Part shown: positions 2,766-32,562 of the stretch, piece by piece
How positions within the stretch are numbered: position 1 is the first letter of the stretch
How the letters are laid out: every line of letters begins with the position of its first letter
Notes under the pieces: generated by a model
What the model saw: the letters and a program-made list of their open reading frames with translations, nothing else
Told to the model about the DNA's origin: nothing
Databases searched by the model: none
Assembly: GCA_964574435.1 (NCBI GenBank)
Contig: CAZNNO010000009.1
Location: 3,828-67,827 of the forward strand
Origin: an uncultured Opitutaceae bacterium
GTDB taxonomy: Bacteria; Verrucomicrobiota; Verrucomicrobiia; Opitutales; Opitutaceae
Direction: 5' to 3'
DNA length: 64,000 nt
Program-made: the position numbers and the translations under genes

Positions 2766-3830
2766 TCAGGGCCCCGCGGTCAGGCTGGGGTAGTCGGTGT
2801 AGCCCTTTGGGCCCGTTCCGTAGAATGTCTCGGGCTGCGGTGCGTTCAGAGCCGCCCCGAGCGCGAAGCGCCTGGGCAGATCCGGGTTGGCGATGAACGG
2901 GGTGCCGAAGGCGACGGCGTCCGCCTCGCCCGCGGCGATCACCTGCTCCGCGGCCTCCCTCGAGAACCTCTCGTTCGCGATGAAGCCCCCGCCGAAGTCG
3001 GCCTTCAGCCTCGGGCCTATCCTGTTTGGGCCAAGCGACTCGCGCGCGCATAGGAAGGCGATCCTGCGCTTGCCGAGCTCGCGTGCGACATAGCCGAAGG
3101 TCGCCAGAGGGTCCGAGTCCCCCATTGACTGGCCGTCGCCCCGCGGAGCAAGGTGCATGCCGACCCGTCCGGCCCCCCAGACCGATATGGCCGCGTCCGT
3201 GACCTCGATCATCAGCCGCGCCCGGTTCTCGATGCTTCCCCCGTAGTCGTCTGTCCTGCGGTTGGATCCGTCCTGGAGAAACTGGTCGAGCAGGTATCCA
3301 TTCGCGCCGTGCACCTCGACGCCGTCGAAACCGGCTGCCTGCGCGTTCTGGGCGCCCTTGCGGTAGGCCCCGACTATGCCCGGCAGCTCGGATGTCTCGA
3401 GTGCGCGCGGCGTGACATAGGGCCTCTGGGGGCGGACGAGCCGCACAAAGCCCGCCGGGGCGATCGCGCTTGGCGCAACGGGCAGCGCCCCTTCGAGGAA
3501 GCACGGGTCGGAGATCCGCCCGACATGCCAGAGCTGCAAAACCATCCTTCCGCCGGCCGCGTGGACCGCGGCCGTGATCGAGCGCCAGCCCGCCACCTGC
3601 TCCGGCGACCAGATGCCAGGCGTGTCCGCGTAACCGACGCCCATGGGCGTCACTGCGGTCGCCTCCGAGATGATCAGCCCGGCGGAGGCCCGCTGCGCGT
3701 AGTACTCGGCCATGAGGGCGTTCGGGACGCGCCCGCCGCCGCCGGCGCGTGCCCGGGTGAGCGGTGCCATCACCACGCGATTGGGCAGTCTGAGCTCGCC
3801 GAGGATCAGGGGATCAAGGAGTCCGGGCAT
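2766..3830 (-). CDS. Old Yellow Enzyme family NADH:flavin oxidoreductase (N-ethylmaleimide reductase-like)
   Basis: ATG at 3830. LRLPNRVVMAPLTRARA, LQLWHVGR, GFDGVEVHGANGYLLDQFL and RTDDYGGS are classic OYE motifs. Confidence 0.9.
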   Translation of the reverse strand: MPGLLDPLILGELRLPNRVVMAPLTRARAGGGGRVPNALMAEYYAQRASAGLIISEATAVTPMGVGYADTPGIWSPEQVAGWRSITAAVHAAGGRMVLQLWHVGRISDPCFLEGALPVAPSAIAPAGFVRLVRPQRPYVTPRALETSELPGIVGAYRKGAQNAQAAGFDGVEVHGANGYLLDQFLQDGSNRRTDDYGGSIENRARLMIEVTDAAISVWGAGRVGMHLAPRGDGQSMGDSDPLATFGYVARELGKRRIAFLCARESLGPNRIGPRLKADFGGGFIANERFSREAAEQVIAAGEADAVAFGTPFIANPDLPRRFALGAALNAPQPETFYGTGPKGYTDYPSLTAGP

Positions 3831-3887
3831 GAGGGTCTGCGTCCAAGAGAGCCGCCTTTCCGCGTTTGTCGAACGCAGCGGCCAGTC

Positions 3888-4376
3888 CTATTCCGAGATA
3901 AGCTCGGCCCCCTCGAGCGCCAGGAGGCGCGTCTTCGTCCGGACGCCGCCCGGACCCGAGAATCCCGTCATCTTCCCCGTGGCCGACACGACCCGGTGGC
4001 ACGGCACTATGAGCGGCCAAGGGTTTGCCGCGAGGGCAGAACCCACCGCGCGGGCGCCGCCGGGGCCGAGCGCGAGCGCCCGGGCGATCTCGCCGTAGCT
4101 TCTCAGGTATCCCGCCCTTATCGAGAGCGCCTGCTGGAGGACCGCCCTCTGGAAAGCGCTGACGATTGACCAATCGATCGCGGTGCCCGAGAAATCCTGC
4201 GGGTCGCCCTCGAGGTGCCGGCGCACCCGCGAGATGACGTCTCGCACCCAGTCCGGCGGGTCGTCCCCGGCGCAGGGGTCCGCGCCCCCGCCGGGAAGGC
4301 GGAAGCGGGAGAGGCCCCGCTCGCTCCACTCCAGGCTGCAGGTGCCGAATGCGGTCAGAAAGCTTGAATGGGACAT
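3888..4376 (-). CDS. ogt: Methylated-DNA--protein-cysteine methyltransferase
   Basis: ATG at 4376. Active-site IVPCHRVV motif, SYGEIA helix-turn-helix region, 162 aa. Confidence 0.9.
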   Translation of the reverse strand: MSHSSFLTAFGTCSLEWSERGLSRFRLPGGGADPCAGDDPPDWVRDVISRVRRHLEGDPQDFSGTAIDWSIVSAFQRAVLQQALSIRAGYLRSYGEIARALALGPGGARAVGSALAANPWPLIVPCHRVVSATGKMTGFSGPGGVRTKTRLLALEGAELISE

Positions 4377-4398
4377 GGCGTGCCTGCTGCCGCCGGCC

Positions 4399-6105
4399 TC
4401 AGGCGGGCACCATCCAGGTCAGGACGTAGGCCTGGAGGTAGACGATCGCCGCCATGACGAGCAGGAGGATGACCGAATGCTTCAATGTGAAGCGGAAGAG
4501 CGAGCCCTCCTCGCCAACCATCCCGGTGGCGGCGCAGGCGACGGCGATCGACTGCGGCGAGATCATCTTGCCCATGACTCCGCCGCTCGTGTTGGCTGCG
4601 CAGGTGAGGAGCGGATTGACGCCCAGCTGCTCGGCCGCCTTTTTCTGCAGGCTCCCGAAGAGCACGTTGCTCGACGTGTCGGAGCCCGTGAGGAACACCC
4701 CGACCCACCCGAGGATCGGCGAGATGAAGGGGAACCACCGGCCGGCCCTCGTCGAGAATATGCCGAGGCAGGGTGTCATGCCGGATGCGTTCATCACGTA
4801 GGCGAGCGCGAGCACCGAGCCGATCGTGACCGCGGGATAGCGCATGTCGTGGAGCGTCTTGCCGAGAAGCCGCAGCGTCCCTGCCGCCCCTGTGCCGCAG
4901 ACGAGCGCCGAAATCAGGGCCGCGATCAGCACGGCCGAGCCGCCGCTGGCAAGGTAATCGAGCTTGAACTTGGCGGGCAGCGGCACGGCCCCGCCCGGGG
5001 TCGACTGCTGCCGAGCGGCGGCCGGCGGCCTGGCGATGGCATTGTCGAGGCCGCTTACGGGGATCAGGAGCGTGCTCCGGTTCAGTGCCGCCTTCACCGG
5101 CGGTACCCCCCAAAGCAGCACCATCGCCGTGAGGGCGATGTAGGGTGACCACGCATGCACGACCTGCGCAGCGGTATAGGAGTGGCGCTCGGCGCCGGAC
5201 ACGGGATCATGGTCGAACCGGAATACCGCCGGCGGCCGCCAGAACCTGAGCAGGACCATCAGGGCGGCCATCGACGCCAGTGAGGACAGGATGTCGGGCA
5301 GGTAGGGCCCGAGGTAGCTCGACACCGCCCACTGGCAGGTCGCGAACGTGGCGCCGCAGGCGGCGACGGCCGGAAGGACCTCGATCGTCCTCCTGAATCC
5401 CGCCATGATGAGGACCAGGTAGGTGGGAAGGATGAGCGAGATGAACGGGAGCTGGTGTCCCACGATGGCCGATAGCTTCATCAAGCCCGCGTCGCTCAGC
5501 CCGATGACACCCCCGAGCGCCACGATCGGGATCCCGATGGTCCCGAAGGCCACCGGCGCCGTGTTCGCCACGAGGCAGATCCCGGCGGCGTAGAAGGGGC
5601 GGAACCCGAGGCCAACAAGCGTCGCGCCCGCGATGGCCACGGGCGCTCCGAAGCCGGCCGCGCCCTCTATGAAGGCCCCGAAGCAGAAGGCGATAAGCAG
5701 CGCCTGCAGCCTGCGGTCGGCCGTGACGCTGGCGAGCGACGCGCGGATGACCTCGAACTGCCCGCTCCTGACCGTTATGTTGAAGAGGAACAGGCTTGCC
5801 AGCACGATGAAGAAAACGGGGAACACGCCGAAGGCGGCGCCCTGGGCGGCGGCGAGCCCTGCGAGCCCTGCCGGCATTCCCCACGCGAAGACCGAGAGGA
5901 GGAGGGCTGTGGAGAGGGCGAGAAGGGACGCGTTGTGGGCCTTCATCCTCAGGACGGCGAGGCAGAAGAAAATGACGGCCAGTGGGACGGCCGCCACCGC
6001 GGCGGACAGGCCCGCGCTTCCCGCGACCGGGGAGTAGGCCTGTATCCAGGGAATGTTTGCGGGGGCCAAGGCGGCAAGGGAAACGCACGCGCCCGTTCGC
6101 GGCAA
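4399..6105 (-). CDS. lctP: L-lactate permease family transporter
   Basis: 568-aa polytopic protein. The N-terminal WIQAYSPVAGS..SAAVAAVPLAVIFFCLAVLRMKAH and the overall pattern resemble LctP/GlcA. The listed start is TTG at 6105; TTG at 6069 is an alternative. Confidence 0.8.
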   Translation of the reverse strand: MPRTGACVSLAALAPANIPWIQAYSPVAGSAGLSAAVAAVPLAVIFFCLAVLRMKAHNASLLALSTALLLSVFAWGMPAGLAGLAAAQGAAFGVFPVFFIVLASLFLFNITVRSGQFEVIRASLASVTADRRLQALLIAFCFGAFIEGAAGFGAPVAIAGATLVGLGFRPFYAAGICLVANTAPVAFGTIGIPIVALGGVIGLSDAGLMKLSAIVGHQLPFISLILPTYLVLIMAGFRRTIEVLPAVAACGATFATCQWAVSSYLGPYLPDILSSLASMAALMVLLRFWRPPAVFRFDHDPVSGAERHSYTAAQVVHAWSPYIALTAMVLLWGVPPVKAALNRSTLLIPVSGLDNAIARPPAAARQQSTPGGAVPLPAKFKLDYLASGGSAVLIAALISALVCGTGAAGTLRLLGKTLHDMRYPAVTIGSVLALAYVMNASGMTPCLGIFSTRAGRWFPFISPILGWVGVFLTGSDTSSNVLFGSLQKKAAEQLGVNPLLTCAANTSGGVMGKMISPQSIAVACAATGMVGEEGSLFRFTLKHSVILLLVMAAIVYLQAYVLTWMVPA

Positions 6106-6188
6106 CCCTTCAGTTCCCCTTGCCGCTGCGCCGAAGGCCGCGCCAAAATCCCTTTGCCCGGCGGCTGGCGCCGGCCCAAGATCCGCCG

Positions 6189-6599
6189 ATGAAGCCGCTA
6201 CGATGGCTGGTGAAGCAGGAGCCCGAGAGCTATTCCTGGGCGCAGTTCGAGCGCGACGGCCGAACGTCGTGGGACGGCGTCCGAAACTACCAGGCGCGAA
6301 ACAACCTCAGGGCAATGCATGCCGGCGACCGCGTTCTCTTCTATTCCAGCGGGGCTATGAAGGCGGTGGTCGGAGTCGCAAGGGTCAGCAGGGCATGCTA
6401 CCCCGATCCGACGTCGGATGAGCCGGCGTGGGTTTCGGTGGAGCTCGAGGCGCAGCGGGCGCTTGCGCGCCCCGTGACCCTCGCCGAGATCAGGGCCGAC
6501 CCGCTCCTTGCCGGGGTCCCCATCGTCCGCAACAGCCGGCTTTCGGTGATGCCGCTCGCGGCCGCTGATTTTGACCGCATCATCCGGCTCGAAGGCTGA
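6189..6599 (+). CDS. EVE (PUA-like) domain protein
   Basis: ATG at 6189 begins MKPLRWLVKQEPESYSWAQFERDGRTSWDGVRNYQARNNLRAMHAGDRVLFY, the canonical EVE-domain N-terminus. The upstream extension of ORF 5982..6599 is Arg/Pro-rich and overlaps lctP. Confidence 0.8.
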   Translation: MKPLRWLVKQEPESYSWAQFERDGRTSWDGVRNYQARNNLRAMHAGDRVLFYSSGAMKAVVGVARVSRACYPDPTSDEPAWVSVELEAQRALARPVTLAEIRADPLLAGVPIVRNSRLSVMPLAAADFDRIIRLEG

Positions 6600-6610: not shown

Positions 6611-9600
6611 TCAGTCGGCCGGACGGCGGACGAGGCGGCCCGATTCCGGCGGCGGCGCCACCTCGGGCTGCTCCTCGGCGAACGCCCGCGTGGGCGCGAG
6701 CGCCTGGCCGGATGCCGTCTGCAGCCTGCCGTCCTTCACCGCCACGTCCTCGACCCGGTAGAGGCGGCCCTCCCTCCGCAGGAACGCATCGAACTCGCCC
6801 GCGTTGAACGGGCGGCTGCCGCGCCTGCCGAAGACCACGGTCTGGTTGCCGGTCTCGTCGACCACCCGGTCGCGATCGAGTCCGCGGCTCACGGCCACGG
6901 CCGCGCCCCGGGTCGGGTAGGTGGCGATCAGCCTCGGGTTCGGGGCCGGGCTGAATCCCATGTAGCCGGGGACGTTCTCGGGCGAGATCATCTGGAGGAC
7001 CCGCAGGCCGTTCTTCCCGTCAGCGACGAGCGCGTACATGGACGCGCTCACGGAGCCGATCTGCACGGCGCGCGTGTCATTGAGCTGCCCGCCGGCGCTG
7101 AAAATCTCCCTGAGGCTCGGGGACGCCGGATTCTTGATGTCCACGATCGCGAGGCCCTCGGAGCCGTCGGCGACATAGAGGTAGGTCCGGGCCGCGTAGA
7201 GGCCCTGCGCATCCCTCAGGGGGACCGTGGCGCCCGCCAGGGGCGCGGGATTGTCCGGGTCGGCCAGGTCGAGGACCTTCACGCCGTCGTCGTCGGTGAC
7301 GAAGGCGTACAGGAACTGGACGGCCAGGCTCCGCGGGTTGCGCAGGAACCCGGCGGGCGTGCGGCCTGTTATCCGCGGCTTCGTCGGGTCGCTCACATCG
7401 ACAACCACGAGGCCCGCGGTGCAGGTCACGTAGAGTCGCCTTCCGGCGACATAGGCGTGCGTCGCCCCGTCGAGCGCGCCGCCGGGGTTGAAGCGCGTGA
7501 CGTCCGAATCCCTGAAGAAGTTGTTCGTGGGATCGCCGTCGAGGAGCGTCCCGACCATCACGTCGACCAGGCCCTCGTAGCGGTCGGTGACGTAGACGTA
7601 ACCGTAGACCAGGCTGATCGGCTGCTCCTCGTTCTCCGGCCGGTGGGTGCGAAGGGGGTCGATGCCGAGCGTGCTGGGAAGGGCCACGCTTGTCGCATAC
7701 TTCGTGCGGACCCAGAGGCGCTGGCCGAGGGGCGAGACCGGGGCCGAGACGATGCGCTCCGAGAAGCCCTTGTTGTCGACATTCGCGACGTCGAATACCT
7801 CGAATCCGCCGGGGCCGTTGGCCGTGTACAGGTACTCGCCGCGCAGCGTGAGGTCCCTGATGTCCTCGCCGTCGTGGTGCCAGCCCTCCTTGAGGACGCC
7901 CGCGTTGGCCTCGACATGCAGCCTGTAGTTGTCCGGATACGCGAGGCGCTGGAGGTGGCTGCCCAGGGGCGCCTGGGGCTCCTCGCGCTCCGTCCACGCG
8001 ACGGCGTCAAAGCCGTCGCGCCCGGAGCCGACATAGGCGTAGCGTCCGAAGAAGTTGACCGTGCCCGTCCCGAAGCCGAGCAGCTGGGTCACCCAGGCAT
8101 TGTTGTCGTTCGAGGCGGACAGGTGGCAATCCGTGCAGTTCTTCGTCGTGCCCACCGAGCTTGTCGTGTGGGGGAAATGCGGGTTGAAGGCCTGGCCTGA
8201 GTAGCCCTCCGCCGATATGGTCTGCTGCTGAGAATAGATCCATTCGCGGTTGGCGTTCTGCGATCCCACGATGACCGCGCTCGACGAGCGCAGGACGGCC
8301 AGGCGGTTCCCCTTGTAGGTGGCGTCCTTGCCGAGCATGAACACGTCGTCGCGCACGACCTGGGGGTTGTAGCTCGTGTAGTTGCGCGTGGTCGTCCCCT
8401 CGAACTTGTTGGCCTGGACCATCTTGTTTGCGCGCATCGGCAGGTGGCAGCCGAAGCAGCTCGTCGCCCATGACGTGTGGCATATCTGGCACGAGATATT
8501 GGAATTTGCGTGGGCAAGCTGCTCGGAGATGATGACGGGGTTCGCGGGCACGTCGCCCCACGTTACCCCGTCCCGCCGCAGGGTCTTCGCGTAGGCGGAC
8601 TTCGGGTTGTAATGCTCCGAGGCGGGGTTGATCGTGTCGATAGTCTGCGGGACCTCCCAGACCACGTCGGGGGTCATCATCGAGCGCTGGTAGAGCCGGC
8701 GCCCGACCCAGAAGAACCTGGGTCCCCACGGCGTGGAGCCCTTGGACAGGTCGGACGGCTCGACTTTTCCGTCCTCAAAGGTCCCGGAATTGCCCGTGGT
8801 CACCAGCGTCGGCCTCCGCTCTACGGTGCCGTGGCAGTCGATGCACTCGATTGCGGTCGCAGCGCGCGGTTCGCCGTAGAGCAGCCCGTTGCCGTGCACA
8901 TCGGTCCCGAAGTGGCAGTCGACGCACTGCATGCCGCGCGCAAGATGGACGTCCTTCAGGTGCACTGCCTTCGTGAACTTCGCGGGGTCGTCGTGGTCGA
9001 TGGGCTTGTCGTCGAGCGTGAGGAGGTTGCCCTCGCGATCCTTCTTGAATACGGCGCGGAACACCCATCCGTGGCCATGGTAGTCGGCAAACTGGGTCTG
9101 CTTCAGCTTGGGATTGAGCTCGGCTACCTTCTCCAGGAAGTCGGGATCGCCCCAGAGGCCCCTCGCCGCGGCAGCCTCGGGGTTGCGCTGCAGCGAAGCC
9201 GCCACCTCGGCCTCCGTCGGGTTCCTCTGGGAGGCCGGGTACATGAATTCGCCGTCGCTCTCCTGGTCCCACCAGATGTAGCCGAGAAAGGGGTTAACAA
9301 ACAGGTTGCCCTGGTGCATGTGGCAGGTGATGCACTGGCTCGACGGGATGCTGCGCGTGAACTGGTGGCGGATCGGGTGGGCCTTCTCGCGCTTGGAGAT
9401 CATGGGGTCGCCAGTGAAGCTGAGTCCCTGGTTGCCGTACTTGGACCACCAGCCGGAATTGGTCGGCGACCGGTCGTTCGCATAGACAACATGGCAGGCG
9501 GCGCAGCCCGACGAGCGGTAGTCGCCCGGGTGGTCGTTCGAGCCCATGAAGCCGAGGAGGGGATCGTGCAGCCGGGTCTTCTGAAGGTTGAGGAACACGG

Positions 9601-10498
9601 GGTCGATGCGGTTGAGCGTCCCAAGGCCCCTTTCCGAGAGGCGCCGCTCCGGATGACCGGGCGTCTCGAACGGGTCGGGAATCCCGATCCGCTCCTGCTT
9701 CTCGCCGCCCTCCTCGAAGATCCGCAGGATGTTCGACGGCTGGCCGAGCTCGAAGCGGGGCAGCGGCTCGAGGTAGGGAAGGATGCCGTTGAGCCGGGTC
9801 AGCTCCGGGGAGACGGGCACGGGGCTCTCCAGCCGCAGGGCCTCGCCATTGGCCCCGTACGCCTGACCGTAGCGCGGGTTCTTGAACGGAACCGCGCCGT
9901 TGTTATAGAGGGCGGCGCCCCAGAGCATCGCCCCGTGGTTCATCATGCTCTTGCCGACATGCTGGACTATCTCGCCGTGGCATAACCCGCAGGCCTTGTC
10001 CGCCACCCGCAGATCCGCCGGGTTCACGAACCGGATGAACTCCTCCGACTCGTGGTTGAGCAGGACCGAGGAGTCGGAGGGTTTTGCCGAGCTCTGCCAG
10101 AAGACCGGGTTGCGCGGCGCGACGTGGGCCTTTCGCATCGTCAGCCCGGGTGTCGGGTCGCCTCCGTGGCAGTCGACGCAGCCGAGGACCACGAAGGGCG
10201 AGGCGTGCATGTCCTCGACTCCGCTGTGGCACTGCAGGCAGCCGGCGCTCTTGCGCCGGGCCGCCTCCGGGCTCTGGTCCACGAGGGTGGCCTCCTTCGG
10301 CGCAGGCAGGGGGGCATCGGACGAGCGCGCGTCCCGCGAGACGGAGATCGGCGGACCAAAGAGCGTCGGTCCCGCCGGGGCCTGGGCTGCGCCTGGGGTC
10401 CCCGCCGGCTGCGCGAGCGAACACAGCGCCAGGCCCGCGCCCGCGACGGCCGCGATCAGGCGCTGGGCGCGTACGGGCTTCTTCGGTGGGAAAGGCAT
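6611..10498 (-). CDS. Secreted decahaem c-type cytochrome fused to a C-terminal LVIVD-repeat beta-propeller
   Basis: ATG at 10498. Sec-type signal peptide (RLIAAVAGAGLALCSLAQP). Ten CXXCH motifs in the first ~800 aa (CLQCH, CVDCH, CGLCH, CAACH, CITCH, CVDCH, CIDCH, CQICH, CFGCH, CTDCH). The C-terminal ~450 aa carries repeated GFEVFDVANVDN, GLVVVDVSDPTKP, GVKVLDLADPDNP, GLAIVDIKNPASP and GLRVLQMISPEN units typical of LVIVD repeats. Confidence 0.85.
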   Translation of the reverse strand: MPFPPKKPVRAQRLIAAVAGAGLALCSLAQPAGTPGAAQAPAGPTLFGPPISVSRDARSSDAPLPAPKEATLVDQSPEAARRKSAGCLQCHSGVEDMHASPFVVLGCVDCHGGDPTPGLTMRKAHVAPRNPVFWQSSAKPSDSSVLLNHESEEFIRFVNPADLRVADKACGLCHGEIVQHVGKSMMNHGAMLWGAALYNNGAVPFKNPRYGQAYGANGEALRLESPVPVSPELTRLNGILPYLEPLPRFELGQPSNILRIFEEGGEKQERIGIPDPFETPGHPERRLSERGLGTLNRIDPVFLNLQKTRLHDPLLGFMGSNDHPGDYRSSGCAACHVVYANDRSPTNSGWWSKYGNQGLSFTGDPMISKREKAHPIRHQFTRSIPSSQCITCHMHQGNLFVNPFLGYIWWDQESDGEFMYPASQRNPTEAEVAASLQRNPEAAAARGLWGDPDFLEKVAELNPKLKQTQFADYHGHGWVFRAVFKKDREGNLLTLDDKPIDHDDPAKFTKAVHLKDVHLARGMQCVDCHFGTDVHGNGLLYGEPRAATAIECIDCHGTVERRPTLVTTGNSGTFEDGKVEPSDLSKGSTPWGPRFFWVGRRLYQRSMMTPDVVWEVPQTIDTINPASEHYNPKSAYAKTLRRDGVTWGDVPANPVIISEQLAHANSNISCQICHTSWATSCFGCHLPMRANKMVQANKFEGTTTRNYTSYNPQVVRDDVFMLGKDATYKGNRLAVLRSSSAVIVGSQNANREWIYSQQQTISAEGYSGQAFNPHFPHTTSSVGTTKNCTDCHLSASNDNNAWVTQLLGFGTGTVNFFGRYAYVGSGRDGFDAVAWTEREEPQAPLGSHLQRLAYPDNYRLHVEANAGVLKEGWHHDGEDIRDLTLRGEYLYTANGPGGFEVFDVANVDNKGFSERIVSAPVSPLGQRLWVRTKYATSVALPSTLGIDPLRTHRPENEEQPISLVYGYVYVTDRYEGLVDVMVGTLLDGDPTNNFFRDSDVTRFNPGGALDGATHAYVAGRRLYVTCTAGLVVVDVSDPTKPRITGRTPAGFLRNPRSLAVQFLYAFVTDDDGVKVLDLADPDNPAPLAGATVPLRDAQGLYAARTYLYVADGSEGLAIVDIKNPASPSLREIFSAGGQLNDTRAVQIGSVSASMYALVADGKNGLRVLQMISPENVPGYMGFSPAPNPRLIATYPTRGAAVAVSRGLDRDRVVDETGNQTVVFGRRGSRPFNAGEFDAFLRREGRLYRVEDVAVKDGRLQTASGQALAPTRAFAEEQPEVAPPPESGRLVRRPAD

Positions 10499-10516: not shown

Positions 10517-12841
10517 TCAGTAGGTGAACGTTCCGGCGAGAATTGCGCTGTACAAAAATTGGTCAACCTTGCCGCTCGAGGCGGGCGTGAATCCGGGCAC
10601 GGCCGGCACCGTGTTCGTGTAGATGTCCCGGTAGCCGCTTCCGGGAAGCAGGACACCGCAGCCGGCGGAGATAATGACGTTGCTAATGAGGAAGGGGCGC
10701 CACTGGAACCCGAGGCTCAGGTCGAAGCCGATGCTGCGGCCCGCCTGGTTTGTCATGAGGACCGTCTTCAGGGTGTCGGTCGAGTCAAACTGGAGGTAGT
10801 TTGCGTTCGCGAAGGCCCGAAGCTTCGGGGTAATGTCCGCCTCGGCGCCCAGGCCGTACAGCAGCAGGCCCGGATTCACGAAATTGGACTGTCCCTCGAA
10901 GGAGCCTCCCGCGCGAAGGTCGGGAAGCAGGCTGAAGCGCTGCTTGAGCGGGACCGACGTCCCGCCGAGGTTGAAGCTTTGGCGCACCCAGTAGCTGAAC
11001 GGCCCCCCGGTGAAGTTCGTGTTGTCCTCGATCGAGTCAAAGCCCGTTGCGCGCCCGCCCTGAGGGTCCCTGTCGCCCGACGCGTAGAAGAACGAGGCCT
11101 TGTAGCGGATCCAGTCCCTGTCGAAGCTCAGCTCGATCGCCGCCATCTCCGCCAAGATGTCCTCCGGGCGCCCCGCAAGGCCGTTGAACTCGTCGCGGCC
11201 TGTGACGAGATAGAGGGCGTCATCCACGTTCAGCTTGCCGATATGACCGTCCCCGGTCAGCCCGATGTAGTAGCTGTCGACGCGGTGGGCTCGAACCGTG
11301 CCGATCGGCGCGGGGCGAACAAGGAATCCGTTCGTGTCGTACTTGGTGCCCGGCTGGTCGAAGCTGCCCAGGACGCTGAGCTCCGTGGTGAACCCGGGGA
11401 ACAGCGAGTCCTGGCGGTAGACGTTCGCGACCGCCACGAGCTGGCCGCGCCTCTGGAAAGTGTTGAGGTCCGAGTCCGTGTCCTTCTCGCGCAGGTCGAA
11501 CAGGGCGAGGTTGTATTGCCACTTGTTGTTGCCGTAGTTGCCGAAGAAGCGGGCGCCGAGGTTCGTGTCGTTGAATATGAAGCCGCGGAAGTCGCTGTTG
11601 AACGTCTGGTTTCCGACGTCGACGGCGCAGAAGTCGTAGTTGGGGGACAGGTCGGCGAGGTGCACCTCGAGGAACGCCTCCTGGAGCGAAACGTAGGTCC
11701 TGTCCCGGGATGTCGCCTGGGTGCCGGCCAGGCTTCCCGGGGCGGGAGTGAGCCCCCCGAGGAGCGAGCCCACGTCGCCCGGGTTTGTGACCCCACCGTC
11801 GTCCGTTCCCGTCCCGTTCGAGGTCAGCGACCCGGTCGGGCTCGGGGAAACCTGGGCCGTCTCGCGGAAATCCACGTGGTTGAAGTCGAAGACGGGCTTG
11901 ATATGCACCAGCCAGTCGACCGGCTTGAACACCGTGTCCCCCTTGAAGAGGTCGAACTCGAGCGCGAGGTCCGACGTGAAGAGCCGCGAGCCGCTGTTCC
12001 CGTAGAAATTGAAGCTTCCCGCGGACGCCGCGCTCGGGCCGCTGGGAACCGGCAGCGTCCGGTCCTCGCCGACAAAGTCGGCCGTCGCGGTGAGCCTGAG
12101 GAACACGTCCTGGCCGCTTATCGGCAGGTCTCCCTTGAGCATGCTCTGGCGGTAATAGTGCCAGAACTCGGGATCGGAATGAAAATACGGCATCTCCTCG
12201 GTGTCGCCGGAGGTGTAGCGGCGCCAGGGCTCGAAGCCTTCCCGCCAGCGGTCGGGCACGGGCCGCGCCCCGGGGAACGCGCCGGGGGTGTCCGCAGGCG
12301 GGTAGGAGCCCGGGGCGCTCCAGTGGCCCGGGATGAACTCGTCCTCGCGCACGCCCGCCCTCGGGAGCCTGAGCGGCGCGGGGAGGGGCTCCTGGCCGTA
12401 GCCGGACGGCGCGGCGGCCTCGGGGGCCTGCGCGATCTGGACCCGCTCGAGGGGCCCGCGGGCCACGCTGACCTGCGCGGTCTCCTGCTTGGCCGGCTCC
12501 GCGGCCTGGAACGTCGAGAAAAGGGAAGGCTCCGGTGCGGGCGCCACTGCCTGCCAGGCTCCGGGGTCCGGGTCGAACTGGAGCGCGGGCTGGGCGCCAT
12601 TGCCCTCTGGGATACGCCTGAGCACGAGGACAGGCGGGGGAAGCGCCACGGGCGGCGCCGGCAGGGGCGCGCCCGGATCGACGTGGACATCGCTCGGCGC
12701 CGCGGGAGGCGTTCCCCTGGACTCCCGTTGCATGGGGCGCGGCTTGTCGGCGGGCAGGACGTCGGGCGCGACCGCGGGGCCGCTCCGGCAAGCCGCCAGG
12801 GCGACAAGGACGAAGGCCGACGTCAGCAGCGCTCGCCTCAT
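10517..12841 (-). CDS. Large outer-membrane beta-barrel lipoprotein (porin-like component)
   Basis: The internal ATG at 12841 gives MRRALLTSAFVLVALAACRSG (lipobox LAAC) and overlaps the upstream stop by 4 nt (ATGA). A ~200-aa Pro/Ala-rich linker is followed by ~550 aa with alternating hydrophobic/polar, Gly/Asp/Asn/Tyr/Phe-rich barrel-type composition, ending ...LAGTFTY with a C-terminal aromatic residue. The longer ORF to 13072 is rejected. Confidence 0.7.
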   Translation of the reverse strand: MRRALLTSAFVLVALAACRSGPAVAPDVLPADKPRPMQRESRGTPPAAPSDVHVDPGAPLPAPPVALPPPVLVLRRIPEGNGAQPALQFDPDPGAWQAVAPAPEPSLFSTFQAAEPAKQETAQVSVARGPLERVQIAQAPEAAAPSGYGQEPLPAPLRLPRAGVREDEFIPGHWSAPGSYPPADTPGAFPGARPVPDRWREGFEPWRRYTSGDTEEMPYFHSDPEFWHYYRQSMLKGDLPISGQDVFLRLTATADFVGEDRTLPVPSGPSAASAGSFNFYGNSGSRLFTSDLALEFDLFKGDTVFKPVDWLVHIKPVFDFNHVDFRETAQVSPSPTGSLTSNGTGTDDGGVTNPGDVGSLLGGLTPAPGSLAGTQATSRDRTYVSLQEAFLEVHLADLSPNYDFCAVDVGNQTFNSDFRGFIFNDTNLGARFFGNYGNNKWQYNLALFDLREKDTDSDLNTFQRRGQLVAVANVYRQDSLFPGFTTELSVLGSFDQPGTKYDTNGFLVRPAPIGTVRAHRVDSYYIGLTGDGHIGKLNVDDALYLVTGRDEFNGLAGRPEDILAEMAAIELSFDRDWIRYKASFFYASGDRDPQGGRATGFDSIEDNTNFTGGPFSYWVRQSFNLGGTSVPLKQRFSLLPDLRAGGSFEGQSNFVNPGLLLYGLGAEADITPKLRAFANANYLQFDSTDTLKTVLMTNQAGRSIGFDLSLGFQWRPFLISNVIISAGCGVLLPGSGYRDIYTNTVPAVPGFTPASSGKVDQFLYSAILAGTFTY

Positions 12842-14541
12842 GGCAGCTTCGCCGTCAACGACCCCCTGGACAGCATCGCCGGCATGTTGTGGTAGACGTG
12901 GCAGGTCGTGCAGCTGTGCGCGACGCCGCCCTTCGGGCTGTGGCATCGGACGCAGCTCTGCTGCGTCGGAAGGATGACGTCGGAGGTGCGCTCGCTTGCG
13001 GCCGCCGCGTGGCACTCGGTGCAGGCCATGGCCGAGTGGGCCGAATGGCGGAACGAAGCGCCGAGCAGCCACCGGTCGGGCGTCTCCGGGGGCGTCACCT
13101 GGGGAACCGCGCTCCCGCGCCAGGCGACGTCGTGGCAGAGCGCGCAGCCCGCGAATTTCGCCCGCTCCTCTCCTCCACCGGCGGCCGGCATGGTCTTGCC
13201 GTTGCTGAGAAAGACCTCCCGCTCAAGTTCCTCGCCGCTGTGCGCGCGCTGGCGCAGCGACTCGAGCTTGCGCCGCACAAAGGCCTCGACCTCCCTTTGG
13301 GAGGAGATCCCGAGCTTGCGAACGGCGAAGTCGGCGTACTGGACTGGGAGGCTTCGCAGGAACGCCCGCACGAACGCCGCGTTGCCGTGCGGAAGGTTCA
13401 TCCCGGGCGTCCGTTCGTCGAAGTCGAGTGCGTGGCAGGCGCGGCATGAGCCCTCGAAGGAGATCCGGGACATGTAGGCCCCGGAGGCGTCGGGCCTGTG
13501 GCAGTAGGCGCAGTCGAGCGGACGGCCGTCCACCAGCGGGATGTCGGTGCCGACCAGGTGGAGACGGTGGTTGAAGCGGAGCGTGTTGACGTCCTGGGAC
13601 TTGTCGCGCAGCACCCGGAACTCGGGGTGATCGGCGGCAAACCCCGTAATCACCTCGGTGTATCCGTCGACAGGCCTGCGCACCGAATGAACGACGAGGC
13701 CGGGAGGGGCCGGACGCTCGAACAGGATCGCCGGCAGGGGCCGGCTCAGCTGGCGCGACGCCTGCATCTGCCTTGGGTCGCCGTGGCACGCGATGCAGTT
13801 CTGCCCGGATACCGCCAGCATCGGGCCGGAGCCCTGGTGCTCCCGGTGGCAGACGGGGCACGAGGTTGCGCGCGCCACGTCGGCCTCGTGGAAGCCCCGC
13901 GCCGCATGGCAGGCCAGGCAAGAACGGTCCATGCGCGAGAAATCCTTCGGGTGATCGCCCGTCAGGTCCGCGAAGCGAAGCGAGGTCCGGGAGGCCGCGA
14001 GGGCATCCAGGGCTAGGTCGCTGAACGTCGAATTCGCGACCGCATGGCAGAGGACGCAGCCCTGCCCGCCCTTCGCGCCCGGCACGCCCGCGGCCAGGTG
14101 CGCGAATTCGGGGCCCGAATGCTGCCGGGAGAGCGGCCGGGGATTTATGAAAATGTCCCGCGCCGAACCCGACAGGCCGACCAGGAGCGCCCCAAGCGCC
14201 GCCGCGGTCACCGCAAGGGCGACCTGGCCGCGGCGCGCCCGCAGGCTGCGCACCGGCTTGCATCGGGGGACCGCGCGGCAGCACGCGCCGTCGGGCAGCG
14301 GCCCGGCCTCGCACGGGCCGCCCCAGTCTTCGGGCCGCGTGCAAACCCACGTGCCCTTTGTTTCGCCCGGCTTGAGCGCGAGACGCGGGGCGCACTCCGT
14401 CGTTGCGCGGCATTTGCCGGTCGGACTCGGGCCGATGCGGCACGGGCACCCGTCCTTCGCGTTGCCGCACACCCAGTCCTTGTTCGGGCGCTCGTAGCGG
14501 CCGCTATTGAAGTCCGGCGTGGGCGCTCTTCCCTCGCTCAT
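12838..14541 (-). CDS. Signal-anchored decahaem c-type cytochrome with N-terminal cytoplasmic Cys-rich domain
   Basis: ATG at 14541 overlaps the upstream stop (ATGA). Residues ~20-95 contain 10 Cys (WVCGNAKDGCPC..GKC..TEC..WVC..GPC..ACC..PRC). These are followed by RSLRARRGQ and one TM helix (VALAVTAAALGALLVGL), then ten CXXCH motifs (CVLCH, CLACH, CPVCH, CIACH, CAYCH, CRACH, CALCH, CTECH, CVRCH, CTTCH). Confidence 0.85.
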   Translation of the reverse strand: MSEGRAPTPDFNSGRYERPNKDWVCGNAKDGCPCRIGPSPTGKCRATTECAPRLALKPGETKGTWVCTRPEDWGGPCEAGPLPDGACCRAVPRCKPVRSLRARRGQVALAVTAAALGALLVGLSGSARDIFINPRPLSRQHSGPEFAHLAAGVPGAKGGQGCVLCHAVANSTFSDLALDALAASRTSLRFADLTGDHPKDFSRMDRSCLACHAARGFHEADVARATSCPVCHREHQGSGPMLAVSGQNCIACHGDPRQMQASRQLSRPLPAILFERPAPPGLVVHSVRRPVDGYTEVITGFAADHPEFRVLRDKSQDVNTLRFNHRLHLVGTDIPLVDGRPLDCAYCHRPDASGAYMSRISFEGSCRACHALDFDERTPGMNLPHGNAAFVRAFLRSLPVQYADFAVRKLGISSQREVEAFVRRKLESLRQRAHSGEELEREVFLSNGKTMPAAGGGEERAKFAGCALCHDVAWRGSAVPQVTPPETPDRWLLGASFRHSAHSAMACTECHAAAASERTSDVILPTQQSCVRCHSPKGGVAHSCTTCHVYHNMPAMLSRGSLTAKLP

Positions 14542-15365
14542 CGCGCCCCCCCTGAAAAAGCATAGACCAACACGACATGCACGCCCGTGAACGTCAGCAT
14601 CGCATAGGTCAGCGGTATGTGGACAAACAGCCAGCCCTTCAGGACGAGCTGCATCGAGCGGTGGAGGTCGAGGGCGTCCTTCTCGCGCACCAGAGCCGCG
14701 AGCTCGACCGCCGCCGACTTCTCAAAGTGGCTCAGGTACTTCTTGATCTCCCCGATGTCCGCAAGGAGCCTGTTCAGGGTGTGGCGGGAGCCAAGCAGAT
14801 GCGGCCCGAAGTTCGCCGGGCCGGCGAAGAAGCCGCTCAGCCTCGCGGCGTAGAAGTCGGCAAGGGTCGTCGCGCCCGCCGTGGGGATGCCGGCGACCAC
14901 AAGGGCCTCGGCGCGCTCGCGCAGCGACCGGCGGATGGACGGGATTCGCTCGTAGGGGACCTCGCCCCCGGCGCTCGTCAGCCTGCGCGGCAGGACGCTC
15001 GAAAGCCACCAGCCGGCGATGCCGCTCAGCGTTACCCCGACGAAGAGCGCGGCCAGCGTTGCCTCGAACGGCCCCCGGGGAAGGCGCCGGCCCGCGTGCA
15101 TGAAAAATACGATGGCCGTCAGCATCCCAATCCAGGAATGAAGCCGCATCCAGGTCCGAGAGCTCACTAGCGGCAGGAAGGCGATCTTCTTGCGCAGGTT
15201 GTAGGCGGTCAGGAAAAGCGTCAGGGCAAACAGAACCCACCCCGTGAGGTAGGCCAGGCGGGGGTTAACCGTCTCGGCCCTGCTGAACGCCCAGATGGCC
15301 GCTGCCGCGGCCCCGGTCGCCGCGGCCGGATAACCGGCCCGCCTTAGGATCCGGCCCGCCTTCAT
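14538..15365 (-). CDS. Polytopic membrane protein with four intramembrane His (candidate dihaem b-type cytochrome)
   Basis: ATG at 15365 (MKAGRIL) overlaps the upstream stop by 4 nt. About 5 predicted TM helices, with His in helices at WMRLHSWIG, VFFMHAG, LFVHIPL and FTGVHVVL, plus a ~110-aa soluble loop. Haem b binding is an inference. Confidence 0.65.
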   Translation of the reverse strand: MKAGRILRRAGYPAAATGAAAAAIWAFSRAETVNPRLAYLTGWVLFALTLFLTAYNLRKKIAFLPLVSSRTWMRLHSWIGMLTAIVFFMHAGRRLPRGPFEATLAALFVGVTLSGIAGWWLSSVLPRRLTSAGGEVPYERIPSIRRSLRERAEALVVAGIPTAGATTLADFYAARLSGFFAGPANFGPHLLGSRHTLNRLLADIGEIKKYLSHFEKSAAVELAALVREKDALDLHRSMQLVLKGWLFVHIPLTYAMLTFTGVHVVLVYAFSGGAR

Positions 15366-17086
15366 CTTTGAATCCAGCTCACGAGCTCGTCGAGCGTGTT
15401 GAGGTTGATCCTTTTCAGCGCGTCGTGAGGGCACGCGCGCTCGCAGGCCGGCCCCCCGTACTGGTCATTGCAGAGGTCGCACTTGGTCGCCTTGTGGATC
15501 GGGTTGGAATCGCTCGCGAGGAGGATGGCCCCCTTTCGGTCGCGCTGCTCGACCATGCGGATGGCCCCGTACGGGCAGTTGTTGGCACAGGCCGAGCAGC
15601 CGATGCAGCTCGAAGGGTTGATGACGACGTTTCCCTCAAAGGTCTCGCGGTGGATGGCGCCCGTCGGGCACCCGATCATGCAGATCGGGTCCGTGCAGTG
15701 CATGCAGGCCTGGGCCACCATGAGGTTGTTGTGGATGGGGCCGTGCCTCAGGAAGCGCGGGTTGTTGTCATGAGTGGCGGCGCACGCCCGGACGCAGTCG
15801 TCGCACCGGGTGCAGTGGTCCAGGTCGATGACCATGGTCTTCGTCCCGTTGAAGAACCTGTTCTGGGTGACGAATTCCATGACCTCCGCCGCCACGCGCG
15901 CGTCGGGCGACTCCGGTGAGGAGGCGGGCCTGAGACGCGCGTCGGCGCGGCGGTCGCCCTCGATCGGGGGCGGAAGCATGGCGTCGGGCATCGCCGGCAG
16001 CACGATCTCCTCTATGATGGAGGCCGGTATCACGAGCACATGCGTGTACCCGATGACGCGAAGGGTGTGCTGGAGGGCGACGTGGTCGTTCGGCCGGCGC
16101 CAGTTGTGAGCGATCTCGTCGAAGCCGTACATGCGTCCCGAGCCGAGGTAGCTGAGGGTGCGGTGCCCGCTTCCATAGCGCTGCGTGACGCGCGCGAACC
16201 CGGCCCGGATCATCACGACGCTGTTGGGGTAGTCGCCCTCGACCGCGATCGTCGGCTCCTGCGCGGCCGAGGCCCCGGACTGCACGAGCTGCTTGTATTC
16301 GCCGGACCAGTCGTATTCCCCGTAAGTCTCGAACTGCGTCGCGTCCATCAGGCGCCTCTTGGCGTCCGCGCCGAGGAACCTCATGAACGGCAGCTCCTCC
16401 AGGTAGGTCGAGAGGGCCCTGTCCCTGTAGATCCCGTCGATGAACTTCCTGACTTGGGGGTCGTAGCGCATGAGGTCGCGCAGGCCCTGCCAGCGGATCT
16501 CGAGCATCTCGGCGCCACCGGCCTTTGCCAGGATTGTCGCGGTCCGAGGGAGTCGAGAAAGCGCGGCTATCTCGCCGAAGACGTCGCCGACGCTGATGGT
16601 CGCTGTGCGCTGGCCGCTCAGGACGCGCGGGATGTCCTGGAGGATGATGCCGGGCTCGGCGTCGCCCGACCGCGCCGCAGGGGTGTCGGCTCCCGCGCCC
16701 CCCTTCGCCACCTCGTCCTCGGCGGGATTCGTCCAGAGCTGGGCAAGCGCCCGGAACAGTCCCCGTCGGGCCGGTTCGCTTCGTCCCACGAGCCTCGGCG
16801 GCAGACCCGGGCTTAGGACGACCTCTGCGGAGCCCGACATGACCATGAAAGCCGAGTTCCCATAGTCGCCCTCGCGCACGATGATCTCGCCGGGCTTGAA
16901 CTGGCGCAGGCGCGCGTCGTTCCTAAGGATGTCGTGGAGCTGTGCCGATCTCGGGAAGCTCTCCGGGTTCATTTCCTTGAACGGGGGGATCCTCAGGAGC
17001 CGGCCCACGTCCATCTCGGACATGTCCTTGCTGAACGGGACATCCCACCGCCTCGGACGATTGAGACCGGACGTGGACTGGCTCAT
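15362..17086 (-). CDS. Two cyclic-nucleotide-binding domains fused to a four-cluster [4Fe-4S] ferredoxin (DmsB/NrfC-like), cytoplasmic
   Basis: ATG at 17086 (MSQSTSGLN) shares 1 nt with the upstream stop (TGATG). cNMP-type segments are FKPGEIIVREGDYGNSAFMVMSG...GDVFGEIAAL and a second AVEGDYPNSVVMIRAGFARV...GRMYGFDEI. The C-terminus has CTRCDDCVRAC, CMHCTDPICMIGCP, CIGCSACANNCP and CDLCND..ACERACP. No signal peptide. The upstream extension to 17431 is rejected. Confidence 0.85.
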   Translation of the reverse strand: MSQSTSGLNRPRRWDVPFSKDMSEMDVGRLLRIPPFKEMNPESFPRSAQLHDILRNDARLRQFKPGEIIVREGDYGNSAFMVMSGSAEVVLSPGLPPRLVGRSEPARRGLFRALAQLWTNPAEDEVAKGGAGADTPAARSGDAEPGIILQDIPRVLSGQRTATISVGDVFGEIAALSRLPRTATILAKAGGAEMLEIRWQGLRDLMRYDPQVRKFIDGIYRDRALSTYLEELPFMRFLGADAKRRLMDATQFETYGEYDWSGEYKQLVQSGASAAQEPTIAVEGDYPNSVVMIRAGFARVTQRYGSGHRTLSYLGSGRMYGFDEIAHNWRRPNDHVALQHTLRVIGYTHVLVIPASIIEEIVLPAMPDAMLPPPIEGDRRADARLRPASSPESPDARVAAEVMEFVTQNRFFNGTKTMVIDLDHCTRCDDCVRACAATHDNNPRFLRHGPIHNNLMVAQACMHCTDPICMIGCPTGAIHRETFEGNVVINPSSCIGCSACANNCPYGAIRMVEQRDRKGAILLASDSNPIHKATKCDLCNDQYGGPACERACPHDALKRINLNTLDELVSWIQR

Positions 17087-22993: not shown

Positions 22994-23016
22994 CGCGAGG
23001 CGACCTGACCCGCCCC

Positions 23017-24420: not shown

Positions 24421-24538
24421 ACCCCATGCGCGGCAATTTCCCAATCCGGTGCCGCCTCACGGAGGCCAGGGCAAGAAATGCGCAGACACCGGCAATCCGC
24501 GCGGAGCGAGCGCCGCAAGCCGTGCGGTAGGATCATTT

Positions 24539-24733
24539 ATGGCCGTTATTCCACTCACACTAACCATCAGCCTCGTGCTGGTCCTGACCTTCGTCGCGTT
24601 CTTTGTCCGTGAGCAAAAGCGGGGCAGCCGCGGCGGCGCTGAGCGCGATTCCCTGCTCCCCCTCGCCGACGAGGTGAGGACTCCGGTTCCGGCGCGCGTG
24701 GCGTCCGACCCAGCCGCTCCGCGGCGCAGCTGA
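24539..24733 (+). CDS. ccoS: Small single-TM protein, CcoS/FixS-like cbb3 oxidase maturation protein
   Basis: The internal ATG at 24539 gives MAVIPLTLTISLVLVLTFVAFFV followed by a charged tail (64 aa). Size, topology and position directly upstream of ccoN fit CcoS. The canonical GQ(F/Y)DD motif is not clearly present. Confidence 0.55.
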   Translation: MAVIPLTLTISLVLVLTFVAFFVREQKRGSRGGAERDSLLPLADEVRTPVPARVASDPAAPRRS

Positions 24734-24751
24734 AGCCCCACACTTCCGGAT

Positions 24752-27079: not shown

Positions 27080-27088
27080 TCCCCTCCC

Positions 27089-27860: not shown

Positions 27861-27863
27861 AGG

Positions 27864-29276: not shown

Positions 29277-29289
29277 ACCCGCGACTGCG

Positions 29290-29451: not shown

Positions 29452-29453
29452 AC

Positions 29454-32500: not shown

Positions 32501-32562
32501 CGCCCCGGCCGCGAGCGACCCCGGGAGGCGCCGCTGCGCGATAGTCGGGCCATCGTCCCTCA

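Follow-up and report, generated by a model that had tools for sequence, protein, structure and literature searches.

In a 64,000-nucleotide stretch of DNA from an uncultured Opitutaceae bacterium (contig CAZNNO010000009.1; hereafter the window), we find a gene for a 1295-residue protein in which a decahaem cytochrome c is fused to a seven-bladed LVIVD beta-propeller. The fusion is genuine, it recurs in several phyla, and its gene closes a six-gene operon that also encodes an outer-membrane barrel and the candidate parts of an electron supply from the cytoplasm. We propose that the protein is a terminal oxidoreductase, docked on the periplasmic side of the barrel's channel and supplied with electrons from NAD(P)H, a reading to which we give about an even chance. 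The gene and its parts are as follows.

6611-10498, minus strand: decahaem cytochrome c / LVIVD beta-propeller fusion gene, last gene of its operon (open reading frame and translation)
10412-10498, minus strand: probable Sec (signal peptidase I, SPase I) signal peptide, residues 1-29, cleavage between SLA and QP (read from the sequence)
8054-10279, minus strand: decahaem domain, about residues 74-815 (CXXCH positions, AlphaFold2 secondary structure, conserved His and a profile match)
6791-8053, minus strand: seven-bladed LVIVD beta-propeller, about residues 816-1236 (Pfam, AlphaFold2 blades and Foldseek)
6614-6790, minus strand: C-terminal tail, residues 1237-1295 (tails of aligned relatives)

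The open reading frame at 6611-10498 runs from an ATG start to a TGA stop. Ten CXXCH motifs, at residues 87, 107, 170, 332, 389, 525, 552, 670, 681 and 788, account for 20 of the 22 cysteines in the protein and are spaced along the chain as 3+2+2+2+1. When the same protein was shuffled 2000 times, the motif arose by chance with a mean of 0.0125 and a maximum of 1, and in an alignment of 144 sequences that are 40-88% identical to the window protein every one of the ten is invariant or at least 90% conserved. That alignment also contains 11 conserved His outside the motifs, a number sufficient to give each of the ten haems bis-His ligation; CXXCK, CX3CH and CX4CH variants were looked for in the fusion protein and none was found. 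Read by eye, the N-terminus has a basic n-region, the hydrophobic stretch AAVAGAGLALCSLA and a putative cleavage site between SLA and QP. The N-termini of relatives resemble it, with a lipobox-like motif in only 14 of 143, and no canonical lipobox can be read in the window protein. With a conserved set of CXXCH motifs on a protein that is probably exported, the sequence has the marks of a multihaem cytochrome c (MHC), and we expect the ten sites to carry haem. The C-terminal tail is common to the Verrucomicrobial relatives, in which it has the form YRVEDV..DG.L.T.SG..L.PT..F...ERL.RRP.

We modelled residues 74-1236 with AlphaFold2, using the 144-sequence alignment as input. The model has a predicted local distance difference test score (pLDDT) of 91 and a predicted template-modelling score (pTM) of 0.92; this high pTM argues for a confident, fixed mutual orientation of the two domains, with the propeller predicted to pack rigidly on the haem domain. 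Within the haem domain (about 740 residues, pLDDT mostly >90), haems 1-7 would lie in a mainly helical and coil region and haems 8-10 in a beta-rich one. The C-terminal part matches the Pfam LVIVD family (PF08309) with an E of 3.9e-21 and 74.5 bits against a cut-off of 20.2. Its secondary structure in the model resolves seven LVIVD-like repeats, starting near residues 819, 887, 965, 1019, 1063, 1104 and 1153, one to each four-stranded blade and of the form Y.YVA.G..GL.V.D...P..P, with a pLDDT >90 there; six are clear and the first is degenerate. When the whole model was searched against the PDB with Foldseek, the top matches were beta-propellers (E down to 2.5e-8), among them 1ri6 (TM 0.64 on 1ri6), AztD and WD40 proteins. 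We considered a catalytic metal site in the propeller and rejected it, as the 144-sequence alignment has no conserved His, Cys or Met there. The conserved propeller loops are rich in Gly, Asp, Pro, Arg and Asn (for example, TL.DGDP.NNF). This absence of conserved potential ligands makes the propeller look structural or binding rather than catalytic.

A first-pass annotation, made from the letters of the window, had described a secreted protein with ten CXXCH motifs and at least five LVIVD repeats in its C-terminal part. The motif count, the shuffle control and the conservation across 144 sequences confirm the ten haem sites, and the Pfam match far above its cut-off together with the seven blades of the model does the same for the LVIVD assignment, with two repeats more than the minimum then given. 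Secretion is backed by a Sec-type N-terminal signal, although the basis for that signal is a reading by eye.

The same annotation raised the possibility that a fusion of this kind could be a product of sequencing or assembly. The exact 1295-residue protein is on record from a 74.5-kb NCBI contig, and a separate JGI contig holds a partial copy that is 100% identical over its extent (91% of the query). The best 120 relatives listed are 68-100% identical and nearly all full or near-full length (mostly 1200-1390 residues), and PF08309 is present in all listed relatives. Those with names are all called 'hypothetical', and their source names point to Opitutus, Opitutaceae, Rariglobus, Pedosphaera and Limisphaerales. 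The same domain arrangement is seen in more than 140 full-length relatives (40-88% identical), and full-length relatives bearing both parts extend down to about 40% identity. On the strength of the exact database protein, the copy on a second contig and this conserved architecture, we reject an assembly or fusion artefact; the fusion is as real as was first claimed.

The family reaches well beyond the Opitutaceae. An exhaustive search against 50%-identity representatives returned 1881 proteins at E <1e-30, and a further search, started from a member with 41% identity, extended the family to Acidobacteria, KSB1, Wallbacteria and Planctomycetes. In a scan of one genome per species, at least 591 GTDB species encode a relative, mostly in Verrucomicrobiota, Acidobacteriota and Planctomycetota. 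Identity between phyla is about 50%; judged by its sequences, the family is large and under strong constraint. Every full-length relative that we inspected has both the haem part and the propeller, and this shared architecture makes the fusion appear obligatory and old. The one apparently propeller-less relative that we inspected, P0132, ends in an Arg/Pro-rich sequence of the frameshift type, and at locus L044 (9710-13612) the homologue is split into two open reading frames by an in-frame stop; both look like sequencing or assembly errors or pseudogenes and not like natural split forms. The relative P0134 (1648 residues) has an extra N-terminal region of about 550 residues, with many c7/c3-type CXXCH motifs, before its decahaem-propeller body, which may amount to a built-in haem 'wire'.

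The most constant companion of the fusion gene is the gene for an outer-membrane barrel.

10517-12841, minus strand: 774-residue outer-membrane barrel (exact 774-residue database protein P0389, AlphaFold2, Foldseek and synteny)

In the 82 loci of relatives in which we counted neighbouring genes, the barrel gene stands directly upstream of the fusion gene in 72, across several phyla, and in many of the remaining loci the contig ends near the fusion gene. In the window the two genes are separated by 18 nucleotides, inside a translationally coupled operon. The functional tie to the adjacent barrel that had been supposed earlier is supported by this synteny and spacing. The start codon of the barrel gene is confirmed by the identical 774-residue entry P0389; the protein has a lipobox (LAAC), then a Pro-rich N-terminal extension of 245 residues, and the barrel ends in FTY. 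An AlphaFold2 model, confident in the barrel part, places 18 long strands between residues 246 and 773. The model leaves the first 245 residues poorly ordered, yet they carry invariant motifs, from which we infer a binding interface. The best structural matches are AlgE alginate exporters (Foldseek E 2e-16, TM 0.61-0.70 on AlgE), followed by OccD/OprD, MOMP and OmpF-type porins; MtrB is absent among the best 50 Foldseek matches, and the barrel has no match to Pfam MtrB_PioB. The Pfam Alginate_exp model (PF13372) scores 17 bits against a cut-off of 25.2, a few barrel relatives carry this domain, and some are annotated 'Alginate export domain-containing'. MtrB itself is a 26-strand barrel that encloses MtrA. 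With 18 predicted strands against about 26, the window barrel falls outside the MtrB/PioB-type class of cytochrome-sheathing porins, and its channel would be unlikely to sheathe a decahaem cytochrome.

Relatives of the fusion protein give clues to the side of the outer membrane on which it works. Two of them, P0314 and P0319, carry a Pro-rich linker and an OmpA-like peptidoglycan-binding domain in place of the C-terminal tail, and the barrel partner in that lineage (26% identical, E 5e-43) has an N-terminal AMIN domain. The occurrence of OmpA-like and AMIN domains in one lineage suggests that at least the C-terminus is periplasmic there. At locus L083 (7599-14622) we observe an AMIN-barrel homologue, a cytochrome-propeller protein with the Pro-rich linker and OmpA-like domain, and then a 113-residue class I cytochrome c. 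Known surface-sorting tails were not seen among the relatives' C-termini, the signals of most relatives are of the plain SPase-I type, and the narrowness of the modelled barrel would also favour a periplasmic placement.

These observations bear on the other placement that has to be weighed, in which the protein would be a surface-exposed terminal reductase, its propeller contacting minerals or humic particles or capping the barrel from outside, with the barrel as the point where electrons pass the outer membrane, as they do in MtrCAB or Pcc. The order of a periplasmic decahaem cytochrome, a barrel and a large MHC mimics mtrA-mtrB-mtrC-type clusters, LVIVD repeats have been described as cell-surface repeats, a few relatives have weak Pfam matches to MtrC domains II and IV, the relative P0133 is a probable lipoprotein, and porin-MHC clusters of a similar kind in Verrucomicrobia and Acidobacteria have been put forward as extracellular electron transfer (EET) systems (PMC5615132; bioRxiv 10.64898/2026.05.27.727921). 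However, the barrel is AlgE-like with 18 strands and not MtrB-like, the other decahaem cytochrome of the operon is a membrane-anchored protein of 567 residues and not a slim MtrA-type insert, and the fusion protein lies below every MtrC/OmcA or DmsE model cut-off; in addition, most members have plain SPase-I signals, and the OmpA-like and AMIN fusions point to the periplasm. We consider a surface position rather unlikely. The first-pass annotation had suggested a terminal, substrate- or mineral-contacting module; the picture of such a module as MtrC-like and set at the surface on a porin-cytochrome conduit does not agree with the shape of the barrel, the lack of MtrC/OmcA or MtrA/DmsE scores and the OmpA/AMIN fusions. 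Its second suggestion, a plug for the adjacent barrel, survives as the idea of a plug or dock, although the side is more probably periplasmic.

To place the haem domain among known cytochromes, we compared it by profile, family model and structure. A profile of 29 haem-domain sequences matches octahaem nitrite reductase with an E of 2e-5, and NrfA more weakly; the match consists of two collinear di-haem segments, corresponding to haems 1-2 and 6-7, and the single sequence compared with PDB sequences gave a best E of about 0.09. None of the best 50 Foldseek matches to the PDB covers the haem domain; propellers fill all 50 and would crowd out such a match. The MtrC/OmcA models (TIGR03507, PF22113) have no match in the window protein at E up to 1, with PF22113 weakly present in some relatives (for example, P0126 with 30.8 against 30 bits), and there is no match to the MtrA/DmsE model (TIGR03508). 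Pfam c3/c7-type matches are borderline and lie around haems 6-7. No NCBIfam score comes near any family cut-off; the best, also confined to the surroundings of haems 6-7, is 66.6 bits against a cut-off of 800 for ExtM (NF040943), a cytochrome of the Geobacter selenite/tellurite operon (NCBIfam). The domain is probably a remote, partial relative of the octahaem nitrite-reductase/NrfA class and stands outside the class itself, lacking CXXCK and sharing homology in two di-haem segments. Thus, of the two folds that had been envisaged, MtrC/OmcA-like finds no support, and octahaem-reductase-like is supported, but partially and remotely (E 2e-5).

This partial likeness raises the question of whether the protein acts instead as a multihaem enzyme on a small compound of nitrogen or sulfur (nitrite, hydroxylamine, sulfite, tetrathionate or the like) and is not part of a conduit, with the propeller in the substrate site or an oligomer interface and the barrel as a dedicated anion channel. 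The sole significant match to a solved structure is that to octahaem nitrite reductase, in its two collinear segments, with NrfA weaker; the about 74 residues per haem, together with an unusually high conservation between phyla (roughly 50% identity, with many invariant Arg, Asp, Tyr, Lys and Asn), suggest an enzyme more than a fast-evolving wire; and a class I cytochrome c gene follows the homologue in L083. AlgE, moreover, is a channel for an anionic substrate. Against this, the protein has no CXXCK or other variant motif, its 11 conserved non-motif His suffice for ten bis-His haems, the nitrite reductase match is restricted to the two di-haem segments and the propeller has no conserved metal ligands. 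Genes of nitrogen or sulfur metabolism do not recur in the neighbourhoods of the 82 loci. Such an enzyme seems to us quite improbable as the role of the fusion protein.

The reading we prefer, a docked terminal oxidoreductase, needs a source of electrons, and the remaining four genes of the operon are candidates for one.

17086-18381, minus strand: 431-residue FNR-type flavoprotein (FAD_binding_6, NAD_binding_1 and a C-terminal 2Fe-2S domain) with an N-terminal hydrophobic segment, first gene of the operon (Pfam, NCBIfam)
15362-17086, minus strand: 574-residue cytoplasmic protein with cyclic-nucleotide-binding and 4Fe-4S dicluster ferredoxin domains (Pfam cNMP_binding in three stretches, Fer4; NCBIfam HydN/DmsB-like)
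14538-15365, minus strand: 275-residue DUF4405-like membrane protein, probable transmembrane di-haem cytochrome b (weak Pfam match, invariant His)
12838-14541, minus strand: 567-residue decahaem cytochrome c, membrane-anchored (ten CXXCH; Pfam Cytochrome_C7, Paired_CXXCH)

The operon reads, in order, FNR-type flavoprotein, cNMP-binding iron-sulfur (Fe-S) protein, DUF4405-like protein, 567-residue decahaem cytochrome, 774-residue barrel and fusion protein. All five junctions are tight: at four of them stop and start codons overlap (TGATG once, ATGA three times), and the fifth is the 18-nucleotide gap before the fusion gene. The start of the Fe-S protein was set from the TGATG junction, and the ATGA overlaps of the 567-residue decahaem gene with both of its neighbours argue for translational coupling. 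Just downstream of the fusion gene lies a convergent EVE-domain gene (6186-6599, plus strand), which makes the fusion gene the last of the operon; a lactate permease gene (4399-6105, minus strand) follows beyond it.

The 275-residue protein scores 21.4 bits against the Pfam DUF4405 cut-off of 26.7. It has, by eye, four hydrophobic segments, two of which carry His pairs spaced as i, i+14, and these four residues (H76, H90, H249 and H263) do not vary in any of the 28 aligned sequences (the window protein included; relatives 24-57% identical). Binding of haem b by DUF4405, a relative of the MsrQ/PepSY transmembrane electron carriers, has been shown by experiment (PMC11334425). The 567-residue cytochrome has one hydrophobic anchor, at about residues 107-125, and its motifs are well kept: nine in 28 of 29 relatives and one in all 29. 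It scores 32.5 bits with the MtrA/DmsE model TIGR03508, far short of the cut-off of 192.2. In the hundred residues before the anchor (residues 1-100; 14245-14541, minus strand) we observe ten Cys, for example in WVCGNAKDGCPCR...CCRAVPRC, and this segment may be a cytoplasmic binding site for a metal or an Fe-S cluster. Together, the four genes at 12838-18381 look like a self-contained module that would carry electrons from NAD(P)H to a periplasmic cytochrome, and no quinone-handling subunit was found in the six-gene operon. Cyclic-nucleotide-binding domains are unusual on an Fe-S electron carrier, and their presence suggests allosteric gating. Locus L001 has a CHASE2-guanylate/adenylate cyclase gene (3725-5836) between cytochrome genes, and this cyclase may be connected with the cNMP-binding Fe-S protein of the system.

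Across the 82 loci, the Fe-S protein gene is found in 29, the DUF4405-like gene in 28 and the anchored decahaem gene in 30, so the Fe-S/DUF4405/decahaem module repeats in about 29. The FNR-type flavoprotein gene is present in 11. By unbiased clustering of neighbours, we found a fused NuoE/F-type NADH flavoprotein (Complex1_51K, thioredoxin-like 2Fe-2S and NADH_4Fe-4S domains) adjoining the Fe-S gene in 13 loci, all of them without the FNR type (L016, L018, L043-L045, L051, L052, L055, L056, L063, L065, L067 and L073). The use of two unrelated NAD(P)H flavoproteins at the same module argues that NAD(P)H is its cytoplasmic redox partner.

Two further genes beside the operon recur near relatives of the fusion gene.

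19618-21129, minus strand: 503-residue protein with two HbpS-like/GlcG (PF03928) stretches (Pfam HbpS-like E 5.6e-25)
18498-19640, plus strand: 380-residue secreted cytochrome c with three CXXCH, cytochrome c554-like, divergent (Pfam Cytochrome_C554 E 9e-9)

A gene for a tandem HbpS-like/GlcG protein is the commonest accessory neighbour, present in 50 of the 82 loci and usually adjoining the barrel gene. In the window this protein has an N-terminal hydrophobic segment, by eye a probable signal, and it could be a haem-binding partner, chaperone or sensor. The c554-like three-haem cytochrome gene occurs in 26 loci, and a separate NHL-propeller gene lies downstream of the fusion gene in 13.

The direction of electron flow could also be the reverse. 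An electron-uptake system would oxidize Fe(II), Mn(II) or reduced humics that enter by way of the barrel and would pass electrons inward to a cytochrome c and a terminal oxidase. The window has a complete cbb3 oxidase operon 14 kb away, L083 has the class I cytochrome c gene after its homologue, and many of the host lineages are known to be aerobic or microaerophilic. We rejected a conserved link of the operon to a cbb3 oxidase, to hemA/hemN or to a class I cytochrome c, none of which recurs in the 82 loci; each occurs near the operon only in the window or in one other locus. The recurrent NAD(P)H flavoproteins and cytoplasmic Fe-S protein fit outward flow better, and inward flow to NAD(P)+ would need an input of energy. 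Electron uptake is therefore, in our judgement, very improbable.

We propose the following model for the docked terminal oxidoreductase. From domains and gene order, the FNR-type flavoprotein, which has a 2Fe-2S centre, would take electrons from NAD(P)H and hand them in the cytoplasm to the cNMP-binding 4Fe-4S protein; they would then pass through the putative di-haem b DUF4405-like membrane protein to the membrane-anchored decahaem cytochrome, and from there to the fusion protein, which would be the distal redox protein of a conserved envelope-spanning electron-transfer system. The haem domain would sit under the co-translated 18-strand AlgE-like barrel. The propeller would serve as a docking or scaffold module that holds it at the periplasmic face of the outer membrane, and the N-terminal extension of the barrel could also hold the protein at the periplasmic mouth of the channel. 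There it would reduce, or less probably oxidize, a soluble or colloidal substrate coming through the channel. Humic quinones, chelated Fe(III) or an oxyanion could be that substrate. In favour of this reading, separate NHL propellers have already been proposed as scaffolds in other porin-cytochrome clusters (bioRxiv 10.64898/2026.05.27.727921; bioRxiv 10.1101/2022.05.06.490989).

Several points weigh against this model. A literature search found no experiment on any member of the family. With regard to the barrel, 18 strands alone are not enough to exclude electron conduction: Cyc2 has been described as a porin fused to a single-haem cytochrome, and we know of no solved structure of the Geobacter Pcc porins. 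With regard to location, the OmpA/AMIN fusions are limited to two closely related clusters, and it is conceivable that a Pro-rich linker runs through the barrel, with the haem-propeller body on the outer side; LVIVD proteins are in most descriptions placed at the cell surface, and the lipobox of P0133 is a true one. Only about one third of the loci have the inner-membrane module within 10 kb, and the direction of electron flow comes from domain logic only. Many host lineages are known as aerobic heterotrophs, which is awkward for a purely anaerobic-respiration role.

A more far-reaching form of the model would make the operon a complete electron-export chain independent of the quinone pool, in which the logic of NOX enzymes and ferric reductases reaches the outer membrane, NAD(P)H is oxidized by the FNR-type flavoprotein (in other lineages by a NuoE/F-type one), the Fe-S protein is gated by cyclic nucleotides and the acceptor is extracellular humics or metals. 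We put this forward tentatively, as possible but with clearly less than an even chance.

Comparison with known systems places the operon near, but outside, the described classes. Its likeness to MtrCAB of Shewanella lies in the combination of a periplasmic decahaem cytochrome, an outer-membrane barrel and a second large decahaem cytochrome, and in presumed electron transfer across or to the outer membrane. In contrast to the 26-strand MtrB, the window barrel is AlgE-like with 18 strands, and the window cytochromes reach no MtrA/DmsE or MtrC/OmcA model. Members of the MtrC/OmcA family are lipoproteins with two pentahaem domains alternating with two beta-barrel domains, whereas the large cytochrome here is fused to a beta-propeller and its family mostly lacks a lipobox. 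The inner-membrane feed of MtrCAB is a CymA-type quinol dehydrogenase; in the window this part would fall to an NAD(P)H flavoprotein together with an Fe-S protein and a cytochrome b.

A 2026 preprint describes four EET architectures in peat Acidobacteriota and Verrucomicrobiota; one of them, EET1 of Acidobacteriota, combines a porin, a cytochrome and a separate NHL propeller proposed as a 'scaffold' (bioRxiv 10.64898/2026.05.27.727921). The Uet cluster of Tenderiales likewise contains NHL propellers (bioRxiv 10.1101/2022.05.06.490989). As in the window, a beta-propeller protein proposed as an assembly scaffold is genetically tied to a porin and an MHC, and the host phyla overlap. However, the propeller of those clusters is an NHL protein encoded on its own, beside a 13-haem OmcE-like cytochrome and an MtrB-like porin, whereas the window propeller is of the LVIVD type and covalently fused to a decahaem cytochrome of another fold class, and the barrel is AlgE-like. 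We reject identity with any of the four peat architectures, none of which matches (bioRxiv 10.64898/2026.05.27.727921).

Closer in taxonomy, He et al. 2017 (PMC5615132) described a Verrucomicrobia porin-MHC cluster, including Opitutus and Ca. Udaeobacter, and proposed EET to humic substances; their periplasmic cytochrome has eight conserved haem sites and stands beside a porin of at least 20 strands. The phylum is the same, relatives of the fusion protein occur in the same genera, porin and MHC genes are clustered in both and some of the described clusters have an 'extracellular MHC'. In contrast, ten sites are conserved in each of the window cytochromes, and the barrel is one of 18 strands, a comparison made by description, with no sequences given in PMC5615132; LVIVD or a propeller has no mention there.

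For the individual proteins, the likeness to octahaem nitrite reductase (TvNiR) and NrfA is a significant partial profile similarity over two collinear di-haem segments. The fusion protein differs in having no CXXCK catalytic motif, in holding ten haem sites in about 740 residues with a beta-rich subdomain and a propeller, and in that most of the haem domain is unaligned. AlgE is the best structural match of the partner barrel and has the same 18 strands; the window barrel differs in scoring below the Pfam cut-off, in its 245-residue N-terminal extension with conserved motifs and in lying in a cytochrome operon, around which alginate or polysaccharide genes do not recur. DUF4405/MsrQ/PepSY-like carriers move electrons across the cytoplasmic membrane, and the known DUF4405 proteins have six helices and are tied to ApbE flavinylation systems (PMC11334425). 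The window protein resembles them in its four central invariant His and weak DUF4405 match, but has four hydrophobic segments by eye and is tied to multihaem cytochromes and a cNMP-binding Fe-S protein. In the literature on LVIVD cytochromes and on the pairings propeller-multihaem-porin, DUF4405-multihaem and alginate-export-multihaem, we found no description of a decahaem-LVIVD architecture. Three features set this system of multihaem cytochrome and outer-membrane barrel apart: the LVIVD propeller is fused to the cytochrome, the barrel is AlgE-like and the proposed feed at the inner membrane is linked to NAD(P)H.

If our preferred reading of a docked, NAD(P)H-fed oxidoreductase is right, it would describe an undescribed and very common family of envelope electron-transfer machinery, carried by at least 591 species representatives; the phyla concerned are prominent in soil and freshwater and have few cultured EET models. 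It would depart from the Mtr and Pcc paradigms in its small AlgE-like barrel, its fused propeller and its feed from NAD(P)H rather than a quinol dehydrogenase, and it would give a first concrete role to an LVIVD propeller. It would also widen the gene set from which reduction of humic substances or iron, or another periplasmic redox reaction, is predicted in metagenomes. Should the quinone-independent chain also hold, these abundant soil and freshwater Verrucomicrobiota, Acidobacteriota and Planctomycetota would possess a regulated, non-energy-conserving electron sink, and with it a previously unrecognized route of organic matter and iron reduction. Rariglobus hedericola, whose homologue is 75% identical, is a cultured carrier, which makes the question directly testable.

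The rest of the window adds some minor observations. At 21884-34470 (plus strand) lie hemA, a hemN-like radical-SAM gene and then the cbb3 oxidase operon, which encodes a fused CcoN-CcoO (775 residues), CcoP, CcoG, a DsbD_2-type protein and two P-type ATPases; this block of microaerobic respiration and haem synthesis, which adjoins the cytochrome operon here, is not conserved in related loci. No tRNA genes are present anywhere in the window. Between 48000 and 56000 the G+C content falls to 0.55-0.59, against about 0.67 elsewhere, and this stretch, which holds a sulfotransferase-like gene, a PhyH-type dioxygenase gene and open reading frames without a Pfam match, may be acquired DNA.

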